From Candidatus Brevefilum sp. (lineage in GTDB: Bacteria > Chloroflexota > Anaerolineae > Anaerolineales > Anaerolineaceae): DNA of 64,000 nucleotides. The translations under genes and the position numbers were made by a program. Location: assembly GCA_029210815.1 (NCBI GenBank), contig JARGGB010000002.1, positions 8,450 through 72,449 of the forward strand. Reading direction: 5' to 3'. How positions within the stretch are numbered: the stretch's first letter is position 1; each line of letters starts with the position of its first letter. The notes beneath the pieces are model-generated. The model was given only the letters and a program-made list of their open reading frames with translations. It made no database searches and was not told the DNA's origin. Shown here piece by piece: positions 1,095-60,521 of this stretch.

Positions 1095-1125
1095 AAAAGA
1101 AAAAACCCAGGGAAAGCCCTCGGTT
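1095..1125 (-). terminator. Intrinsic terminator in the ABC-F 5' leader (attenuator)
   Basis: Minus strand AACCGAGGG-CTTT-CCCTGGGTT (one mismatch) followed by TTTTCTTTT, ending about 17 nt before the ABC-F GTG. Confidence 0.75.
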
Positions 1126-1172
1126 AAATAAAATCTACCAGGAAAATCAGCTTTCCTAAACACTTAAGATTT

Positions 1173-1193
1173 TTAGCAATTGATGCGAATCAC
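1173..1193 (-). CDS. Putative leader peptide MIRINC
   Basis: AAGGAG (1205-1200), 6-nt spacer, GTG ATT CGC ATC AAT TGC TAA; TATAAT at 1230-1225 upstream. Confidence 0.65.
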   Translation of the reverse strand: MIRINC

Positions 1194-1374
1194 GCACAGC
1201 TCCTTACTCGTTGATATGTTCTGAATTATATCCTAATTTAAAATTTTTTTCATTAATTTCCAAAAGAATCGCTGAATAAGTAATTCTTATAGCAAAAATC
1301 AAATTTTTGACCCGTGTTTAGTTTATCGTATATTTTTCAAACAAATTCATTGAGCATGATCTTCGAAAGATGCG

Positions 1375-2823: not shown

Positions 2824-3330
2824 TTAGAGATCCCGCAATAGTGTTCCTTTTATGTCTCGATCTATTTCCCAGGGATAAATAATAAATGCGTCGGTAATTG
2901 CTGCAAAATAATCCGGCCTGTTGGTCCCAAACAAATTTCGATAGGGGTTGAAATGCAAAACGCAGGTGTAAGGAAATCCGCCGGCAGCTGAAACCCGGTT
3001 TTTGACCGATGTGATCGTCCTGCCTGACCCCCAAACATCATCAATGATCAAAATCCTCTCGCCGCTCAGCAATTCATCCTCCGGAAACATTAAAAAGTTC
3101 GGCCAAGCTAACAAACGCGGCCGTTCCATTTCCGCCAGCTCAGAGGGAAAATCAACGGATGCAATCAATAATTTTTGAATATCCATGACTTCAGCCAGCA
3201 ATCCCCCCGGTACGATGCCGCCGCGTGATACCATGATCATACCGTCAAAGGTCAAATCAAATTGTGGGAGCAAATGATCAATCAACTTGTCTACATCATT
3301 CCATGTAAGAACTTCTTTTCTTTTCTGCAT
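2824..3330 (-). CDS. Type I phosphoribosyltransferase (purine PRT-like)
   Basis: VSRGG loop and PRPP-binding motif ILIIDDVWGSGRT. Confidence 0.88.
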   Translation of the reverse strand: MQKRKEVLTWNDVDKLIDHLLPQFDLTFDGMIMVSRGGIVPGGLLAEVMDIQKLLIASVDFPSELAEMERPRLLAWPNFLMFPEDELLSGERILIIDDVWGSGRTITSVKNRVSAAGGFPYTCVLHFNPYRNLFGTNRPDYFAAITDAFIIYPWEIDRDIKGTLLRDL

Positions 3331-15403: not shown

Positions 15404-15512
15404 TGCCCGGGTAGGATTCCCGGCGGCACCCAGAGATACCTCCTTACCGCTGCTTCCTCTCGGACCTGACGGGGTTCGTAGGGCTCCGCCGCGCCGGTCC
15501 CACCCGGACGGC
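15404..15512 (-). ncRNA. ffs: Small bacterial SRP RNA (4.5S)
   Basis: Helix-8 signature TCAGGTCCGAGAGGAAGCAGC within a long hairpin with complementary ends; TTGACA (about 15545-15540) and TATTCT (15522-15517) upstream. Confidence 0.93.
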
Positions 15513-60447: not shown

Positions 60448-60521
60448 CGGGGTGTAGCGCAGTCGGCCAGCGCGCCGCGTTTGGGACGCGGAGGTCGGCG
60501 GTTCAAGTCCGCCCACCCCGA
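60448..60521 (+). tRNA. tRNA-Pro (UGG)
   Basis: CGGGGTG/CACCCCG acceptor stem, anticodon arm CCGCG-TTTGGGA-CGCGG, GGTTCAAGTCC T-arm; the full CCA is not encoded. Confidence 0.96.

Follow-up and report, generated by a model that had tools for sequence, protein, structure and literature searches.

We have identified, in a 64-kb stretch of DNA from Candidatus Brevefilum sp. (Chloroflexota, Anaerolineaceae; hereafter the window, to which all coordinates refer), a leader in front of an ABC-F gene on the minus strand that probably reports the dwell time of ribosomes on a six-codon upstream open reading frame (uORF) and controls the gene at two levels. Comparative sequence analysis establishes that the leader of this Brevefilum/Anaerolineaceae ABC-F mRNA is conserved and covarying, with a uORF, a putative terminator/antiterminator pair and a start site predicted to be masked. 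Slowed or arrested translation of the uORF would lead to more read-through and to an exposed start site, and thereby to more ABC-F. Antibiotic sensing we infer by analogy with vmlR, cplR, lmo0919 and msrD; on the same analogy a ribosome-targeting antibiotic would be the most likely natural trigger, with general translation stress as the alternative. An earlier interpretation of this DNA (the sequence-only reading) had proposed a short-uORF leader with a terminator/antiterminator upstream of an ABC-F gene in a Chloroflexota-like lineage, and had taken it for an antibiotic-sensing resistance switch; the architecture is borne out by the comparison of 14 leaders, and the lineage is Brevefilum/Anaerolineaceae.

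The comparison set consisted of the window and 13 orthologous loci from Brevefilum/Anaerolineaceae, with protein identities of 68–97%. A genome-collection scan yielded one close locus (L001, 97%), and 12 further orthologues were fetched by exact-protein look-up; a metagenome-collection scan with generic patterns returned only distant relatives (≤43% identity), and the leader motif was present in none of the distant ABC-F loci inspected. Database relatives of the ABC-F of the window are proteins of 558 amino acids (aa) with the source names Brevefilum sp., Anaerolineaceae or Chloroflexota, the orthologues being otherwise derived from unlabelled public metagenome assemblies. Common to all 14 leaders are an invariant TATAAT, an AGGAG, the uORF and a hairpin with a T-run just 5' of the ABC-F start. 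The uORF is followed in the orthologous leaders by a TCTTAA box, a U-rich stretch, GGAAAGC(Y), a variable spacer with YGGTT, a hairpin with a CTTT loop, a T-run and TTTTAAGAAGGCAGG-N5-GTG. Downstream synteny is kept among the orthologues (a NifU-like gene, then VWA/Mg-chelatase on the other strand); the upstream neighbour varies and may be an MFS transporter, GH127, CitMHS, GyrI-like or another gene. The recurrence of the arrangement in 13 other loci with different upstream genes points to a conserved leader. That short motifs should have come together by chance in AT-rich intergenic DNA is scarcely credible: the terminator of the window fails a strict scan and the hairpin at 1157–1140 is not significant alone, but conservation and covariation across the 14 loci effectively refute this explanation.

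The first level of the proposed control, translation, involves the following elements.

1205–1200, minus strand: Shine-Dalgarno sequence of the uORF, AAGGAG, 6 nucleotides (nt) before the uORF start codon.
1193–1173, minus strand: uORF, GTG ATT CGC ATC AAT TGC TAA (MIRINC*).
1187–1163, minus strand: anti-start-site strand, comprising uORF codons 3–6, the stop and TCTTAA(G), complementary to 1076–1097.
1097–1076, minus strand: ABC-F translation initiation region, TTTAAGAAGGCAGGTTGATGTG, with Shine-Dalgarno-like AAGG/AGG and the GTG at 1078–1076.
1078–1, minus strand: ABC-F gene, N-terminal 359 codons, running off the window (orthologues have 558 aa).

Codons 3–6, the stop and TCTTAA would pair imperfectly, over about 20 bp, with the ABC-F Shine-Dalgarno sequence and GTG, and covariation and modelling suggest that the main start site would be masked unless a ribosome sits on the uORF. 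This helix is the best-supported feature of the leader and was absent from the sequence-only reading. RNAalifold paired uORF codons 3–5 with the ABC-F start region. The helix 1187–1180:1076–1083 is paired in 96.4% of alignment cells, a value reached by none of 500 shuffles and to be compared with about 40% in slid controls; four of its eight pairs are compensatory (CG/UA/UG, AU/CG, AU/GC and UA/AU). The duplex extends through codon 6 (TGC or CTG), which faces GGCA/CAG of the Shine-Dalgarno region, on to TCTTAA:TTAAGA, and the helix 1169–1164:1091–1096 is 89% paired. In two loci (L087 and L099), TCTTAA has become TGCCA together with the loss of GA in TTAAGAAGG; TGCC then faces GGCA and complementarity is kept. 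The duplex energy computed with RNAduplex is −16.6 kcal/mol in the window and between −12 and −23 kcal/mol in all 14 leaders (z from −1.3 to −5.1). The ABC-F initiation region itself is nearly invariant across the orthologues. Since the start site is paired with uORF codons, the duplex would represent a translational lock that a ribosome on the uORF must open.

The uORF in turn looks translated, as judged from the interchange of GTG and ATG start codons, the in-frame TAA stop, synonymous changes and a seven-codon variant that retains a stop. TATAAT at 1230–1225, AAGGAG and the uORF MIRINC had all been listed by the sequence-only reading and were found on the minus strand where it had placed them. 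Conservation of the uORF in orthologues, on which that reading had staked its proposal, is seen in 13 of the 14 loci, the fourteenth having a 1-nt insertion. The start codon is GTG in 11 loci and ATG in three, the stop is always TAA, and the length is six codons in 12 loci and seven in one. The peptides of the 13 loci (MIRINC, MIRIKL, MIRIYC, MIRIKH, MTRNNL, MTRIHL, MIRIRL, MIRIHL, MIRINL and MIRIRLQ) follow the pattern M-[I/T]-R-[I/N]-x-x, and the synonymous changes are ATT/ATC and CTG/CTC/CTT. One could suppose that the ‘uORF’ is untranslated and that the block is purely an RNA anti-start-site strand, with Shine-Dalgarno sequence, start and stop being incidental; codons 3–6 are indeed under RNA-pairing constraint, so that peptide conservation needs no translation. 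We consider this very unlikely, since an AGGAG invariant in all 14 leaders precedes by 5–7 nt a start codon that may be GTG or ATG, 13 of the 14 loci have an in-frame TAA, which sits in an unpaired part of the duplex, the length is fixed at six codons (seven in one), and the Shine-Dalgarno sequence and codon 2 lie outside any conserved helix.

The insertion in the fourteenth locus (L094, about 1905–1930) is one extra T in codon 2/3 (GTGACTTCGCATC), which yields a 15-codon reading frame; the RNA pairings are all kept, and an assembly error is possible in this long-read assembly with ‘contig_N’ names. Two other reading frames were rejected. An alternative frame of the uORF from a GTG 4 nt upstream (MRDSHQLLKILSV) has a Shine-Dalgarno spacing of 2 nt, a length that is not conserved and an immediate stop in L087. 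A 27-aa frame from GTG 1163 to TGA 1080 on the minus strand, considered for re-initiation or coupling, spans the boxes and the terminator and stops one base 5' of the ABC-F start; its start or frame is not kept in the orthologues, except in the 97%-identical L001.

The second level, transcription, would depend on four further elements.

1157–1140, minus strand: hairpin AGGAAAG/CTGA/TTTTCCT with six Watson-Crick pairs and one G.U (−6.3 kcal/mol), in which Box 1 pairs with the Box 2 region; a candidate anti-antiterminator.
1156–1149, minus strand: Box 1, GGAAAGCT, the antiterminator 5' strand, which pairs with 1118–1111.
1142–1137, minus strand: Box 2, CCTGGT (CGGTTG-like in orthologues), forming the inner antiterminator helix with the terminator 5' arm at 1124–1118.
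1125–1095, minus strand: intrinsic-terminator-like element, a stem-loop at 1125–1104 followed by TTTTCTTTT ending at 1095.

The hairpin and U-run, which end 16 nt before the ABC-F start and begin about 48 nt past the uORF stop, may act as an intrinsic terminator. GGAAAGC(Y) and YGGTT could pair instead with the loop and 3' arm and with the 5' arm of the terminator, respectively, giving a 13-bp antiterminator, and a ribosome lingering on the uORF would, after the vmlR/cplR/msrD paradigm, favour the latter. While the elements themselves are supported by the comparison, their coupling to the uORF is drawn from that paradigm. The terminator stem of the window, AACC-G-AGGG / CTTT / CCCT-G-GGTT, is imperfect, with 8 bp, a G.G mismatch and the loop CTTT. 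The strict terminator scan called no terminator in the window, owing to the G.G mismatch; the same scan did call one in L088 and in L084, whose orthologous hairpins have 9 and 10 bp, respectively. A hairpin and T-run are present in all 14 leaders, and the terminator is 85.7% paired, with little covariation in the alignment register used. The terminator that the sequence-only reading had placed about 17 nt before the ABC-F gene is thus present as a hairpin with a T-run, but its stem is imperfect and the distance is 16 nt.

The antiterminator pairing is conserved throughout. The same reading had noted that GGAAAGC (1156–1150) is exactly complementary to GCTTTCC (1117–1111) in the terminator and that the two folds would exclude each other. 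Both points hold: bases 1118–1111 of the terminator double as the antiterminator 3' strand, and in columns 77–84:128–135 of alignment A2 (window 1156–1149:1118–1111) 112 of 112 cells are standard pairs. Two pairs are compensatory (GGAAAGTC/GACTTTCC in L085 and AGAAAGCC/GGCTTTCT in L093); the observed values are attained by 13 of 500 shuffles, and no slid control exceeds 77%. The inner helix between the YGGTT box and the terminator 5' arm appears in all 14 antiterminator-constrained folds and is paired in about 76% of cells in the MAFFT register. Constrained folds place the two conformers −7 to +8 kcal/mol apart, which is switch-like. The hairpin at 1157–1140 exists as originally described, but it is neither significantly stable nor conserved in sequence: z is −0.87 in the window and +0.8 to −2.1 in orthologues (mean about −0.6), most of which have comparable local hairpins. 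Also rejected were a small hairpin TCTTAA:TTAGGA that would sequester Box 1, found in about 8 of the 14 loci and lost without compensation in L087 and L099, where the start-site pairing is compensated, and a NusG-type TTNTTT pause motif, present as TTATTT in the spacer of the window and not conserved across leaders.

The 5' end of the leader contributes two more features.

1253–1225, minus strand: promoter-like site with −35 ATGAAA (1253–1248), a 17-nt spacer and −10 TATAAT (1230–1225).
1218–1210, minus strand: 5'-terminal stretch, CATATCAAC, which could pair with GTTGATGTG (1084–1076) and does so in the minimum-free-energy fold.

ATGAAA and TATAAT, found by a promoter scan on the window, match 10 of 12 positions, and transcription probably starts near 1219–1217. 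The control region in front of the ABC-F gene measures about 140 bases. TATAAT is invariant and at a constant distance from the uORF Shine-Dalgarno sequence in every leader, whereas the sequence farther upstream and the neighbouring gene differ. As a whole, the leader folds only moderately better than its shuffles (−39.6 kcal/mol, z = −2.25; equalled by 4 of 200 shuffles). The 5'-terminal stretch is tentatively a second ‘anti-start’ strand; its pairing (1218–1210:1084–1076) is weaker across orthologues than the uORF:start helix, with 72.8% paired and absence in L095 and L097. For pairing of this stretch with the boxes or the terminator, no consistent partner was found. Upstream of the leader and in the same orientation lie genes for an MFS transporter (1375–2808) and a phosphoribosyltransferase-domain protein (2824–3330, minus strand). 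This gene order also occurs in L084, L094 and L095, and the MFS gene adjoins in L089; a drug-efflux partnership of MFS and ABC-F is conceivable, the ABC-F gene nonetheless having its own promoter.

In the folding model, uORF occupancy does reach the start site. The probability of the start codon being unpaired rises from 0.20 without a ribosome to 0.72–0.84 when the 5' uORF region is occluded, and that of the whole start region from 0.18 to about 0.47; occlusion of a minimal footprint gives a smaller rise.

Several results, set out in this and the following paragraphs, weigh against an antibiotic-responsive switch at two levels. In three leaders (the window, L001 and L084), the start site stays paired when a standard footprint alone is occluded, owing to the 5'-terminal stretch and a local hairpin. 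Folding the leader with and without the ribosome footprint, a check suggested by the sequence-only reading, did not tip the terminator/antiterminator balance: occlusion shifts the difference by about −0.9 kcal/mol on average, with no systematic shift, although thermodynamic folding cannot capture co-transcriptional kinetics. The gap between the uORF stop and Box 1 is 13–16 nt across leaders. A ribosome at the stop codon covers about 10–11 nt and the hairpin at 1157–1140 starts 15–16 nt past that stop, hence it is out of reach of a stalled ribosome. In the 14 leaders, the ribosome-covered zone pairs with the Box 1-to-terminator region no better than shuffles do, and we found no conserved anti-antiterminator within reach of the ribosome. 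Finally, RNA pairing can account for the conserved MIRI, for the invariant CGC-AT and for the variation at residues 5 and 6; as pairing to ATGTG explains CGC-AT, peptide conservation is no evidence for a drug-specific arrest peptide.

These results bear on a possible, if less probable, account in which control is by translation only: the uORF would govern start masking alone and the terminator pair would be a constitutive partial terminator or would answer to something else, for example to pausing of RNA polymerase, to NusA/NusG, to nucleotide levels or to an RNA-binding factor. The unchanged balance under modelled occlusion and the lack of a conserved anti-antiterminator in ribosome reach favour it, and repression of cplR is reported to be achievable by translational attenuation alone (PMC10201436). 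On the other hand, Box 1 lies a constant 35–37 nt from the uORF start, even in the seven-codon variant, which suggests geometric coupling; all characterised ABC-F leaders of the same layout couple both levels; and the folding calculations are blind to kinetics during transcription. Occupancy of the uORF might bias the terminator through kinetics, through pausing or through steric effects at the base of the hairpin.

The ABC-F gene itself starts at GTG 1078 (MFTVQNLTKSYG), the frame being closed upstream by a stop with no other start codon. The fragment in the window contains ABC_tran (PF00005) and the ABC_tran_Xtn linker (PF12848); full-length orthologues of 558 aa have two ABC_tran matches, i.e., two ABC domains and a linker, with no membrane domain. 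Among NCBIfam models, the fragment is matched best by NF000355 (‘ribosomal protection-like ABC-F’), with 207.6 bits and 63% of the model covered; this model is passed by a 96%-identical full-length relative (P0001; 392.7 bits, cut-off 380). P0001 fails all named resistance-subfamily models tried (Lsa, Vga, Msr, Sal, OptrA, CplR and the producer-type TlrC/CarA/OleB/SrmB), with 180–283 bits against cut-offs of 680–1450, and is also far below cut-off for EttA, Uup and YbiT-type models. By sequence models, the protein is thus resistance-like according to the generic model of NCBI but falls in none of the characterised subfamilies. In comparison with solved structures, the alignment to EttA and PoxtA begins at the N-terminus, whereas that to VmlR, Lsa and Vga begins only at residue ~150, which indicates an EttA-like insertion in the first nucleotide-binding domain. 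With its conserved downstream synteny the gene looks vertically inherited, and a housekeeping role is possible.

A few annotations of this family call for comment. Several orthologues (P0007, P0018, P0027, P0104, P0108, P0118 and that of L084, 2001–2063) are annotated with 562–578 aa because the gene caller placed the start within the leader (the one called in L084 precedes the conserved GTG by 60 nt); they are most likely really of 558 aa. P0018 (75% identical) and P0064 (71%) may be paralogues within one genome: both are listed with a longest contig of 587,321 bp, which is also the length of contig NPIE01000562.1 (the source of L088).

It is somewhat doubtful, but worth weighing, that the ABC-F is a core translation factor of Anaerolineaceae whose leader senses general translation stress or the factor's own activity; the factor would act on ribosomes slowed at the uORF and thus set its own level homeostatically. 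The identities of 68–97% with conserved synteny, the lengthwise alignment of the first nucleotide-binding domain with EttA/PoxtA and the failure to match a named resistance subfamily agree with such feedback, as do reports that MsrD feeds back on its own leader (PMC10314930) and that VmlR is also induced by ribosome-assembly defects (PMC9226507). However, vmlR, cplR, lsa(A) and sal are chromosomal and vertically inherited and yet are genuine intrinsic resistance factors with the same leader type, and it is NF000355 that is passed, with the EttA, Uup and YbiT-type models far below cut-off. A more radical departure from the Firmicute paradigm appears unlikely. The default could be read-through, as no anti-antiterminator is within ribosome reach and the antiterminator strands are made first; normally terminating ribosomes would then promote termination, or else the terminator would obey a separate signal. 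Either way, the ABC-F might be a core Anaerolineae translation factor that tunes itself via the MIRI uORF and not a drug-resistance gene.

The locus was also met in four RNA-labelled runs, as contigs only. The contigs break at 1100/1101 and 1129/1130, on either side of a 31-mer that the strains have in common. These breaks fall at strain variants rather than at RNA 3' ends and say nothing on termination. Within the RNA-labelled runs X1–X5 (sediment, oil-field), the region of window positions 1099–1130 belongs to near-identical leader and coding sequence from several strains, with variants such as G>C at 1099 and, in the loop of the hairpin, changes at 1148/1149. Beyond the promoter, one contig runs on into upstream sequence that differs, as it does in L001, so that DNA carry-over or read-through from upstream is possible. 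One RNA run with related sequence is labelled as oil-field metagenome and several as sediment metagenomes.

The two-level control by ribosome dwell time that we favour has partial counterparts in known systems. In cat-86, cmlA and ermC, the coding sequence of a short leader ORF is one strand of a helix that hides the resistance gene's ribosome-binding site, and this helix opens when a ribosome lingers on the leader; such helices are local hairpins. The Brevefilum leader is alike in that the uORF coding strand masks the main ribosome-binding site, but its strands are ~65–80 nt apart and a complete terminator/antiterminator module lies between them.

Closer in gene content are the ARE-ABCF genes, which premature termination normally silences and which are switched on when antibiotics stall ribosomes on uORFs (PMC10201436); their control combines short-uORF stalling with transcription and translation attenuation (PMC10201436, PMC9226507, PMC10314930). 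Consensus uORF peptides are MIN (VmlR), MR[I/M] (CplR), MK[L/Q] (VmlR2) and MAGN (LsaA) (PMC10201436). The leader of Bacillus subtilis vmlR comprises an anti-antiterminator with the uORF, a pause hairpin, a terminator and a hairpin sequestering the Shine-Dalgarno sequence (PMC9226507). It shares with the Brevefilum leader an own promoter, a very short Shine-Dalgarno-driven uORF, an intrinsic terminator just before the ABC-F gene, an overlapping antiterminator with an apical hairpin and an extra layer masking the main Shine-Dalgarno sequence. In vmlR, however, the three-codon uORF MIN lies inside the anti-antiterminator SL-1, which the stalled ribosome opens directly, whereas the uORF of Brevefilum has six codons and no conserved anti-antiterminator overlapping it. 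The main Shine-Dalgarno sequence of vmlR is hidden by a local hairpin, SL-4 (the terminator being SL-3), and the Brevefilum start by the long-range uORF duplex; no NusG-type TTNTTT motif is conserved in Brevefilum-type leaders.

Clostridioides difficile cplR (uORF MRI; PMC10201436) likewise combines transcriptional and translational attenuation, with a uORF that begins M-R/I and a terminator adjoining the main start. Its terminator stem sequesters the main Shine-Dalgarno sequence and a 5' hairpin sequesters the uORF; in Brevefilum the terminator ends before the start, and Shine-Dalgarno sequence and start pair with the uORF coding sequence. In streptococcal msrD, the six-residue leader peptide MsrDL (MYLIFM) stalls at UAA and msrD feeds back on itself (PMC10314930). 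Six codons with a UAA stop before an ABC-F gene and an intrinsic terminator are common to both leaders, but the ribosome stalled on MsrDL physically blocks the terminator hairpin, while that of Brevefilum is ~48 nt past the uORF stop, and MsrDL is a macrolide-specific arrest peptide, unlike the Brevefilum uORF with its conserved residues explained by RNA pairing. The sole mention of Chloroflexi in the ABCF survey of Murina et al. is the ARE4 subfamily (PMC6723617), the model of which is not passed by the protein described here. In the literature searched, no description was found of such a leader in Chloroflexota.

A more distant locus (L009, about 1340–1500) with an ABC-F of 41% identity has TTATAAT, a five-codon uORF and a GC-rich hairpin before the gene. 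The uORF reads ATG ACG GAC ATC CTG TAA (MTDIL), and its ATCCTGTA is perfectly complementary to TACAGGAT at the main ribosome-binding site. Given this locus, the design in which a uORF masks the main start may be widespread.

No Rfam family reached its gathering score on the leader (best E-value 0.16, far below threshold). The only two matches at gathering score in the entire 64-kb window are the following.

15406–15505, minus strand: bacterial small signal recognition particle RNA (Rfam, 62.6 bits).
60448–60521, plus strand: tRNA (Rfam, 68.2 bits).

Overall, the leader would carry over to Chloroflexota a logic known until now from Firmicutes and Actinobacteria, the control of ABC-F ribosome-protection genes by uORF attenuators. 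It would provide a test case for how a ribosome signal reaches a terminator at such a distance from the uORF. The apparent dual coding, in which pairing with the main start site constrains four of the six codons of the uORF, cautions tools that take leader-peptide conservation as a sign of drug-specific arrest motifs. For the organisms themselves, the leader would mark a widespread and uncharacterised family of 558-aa ABC-F proteins as inducible by translation stress, and therefore as a candidate intrinsic resistance determinant in surveys of the environmental resistome.

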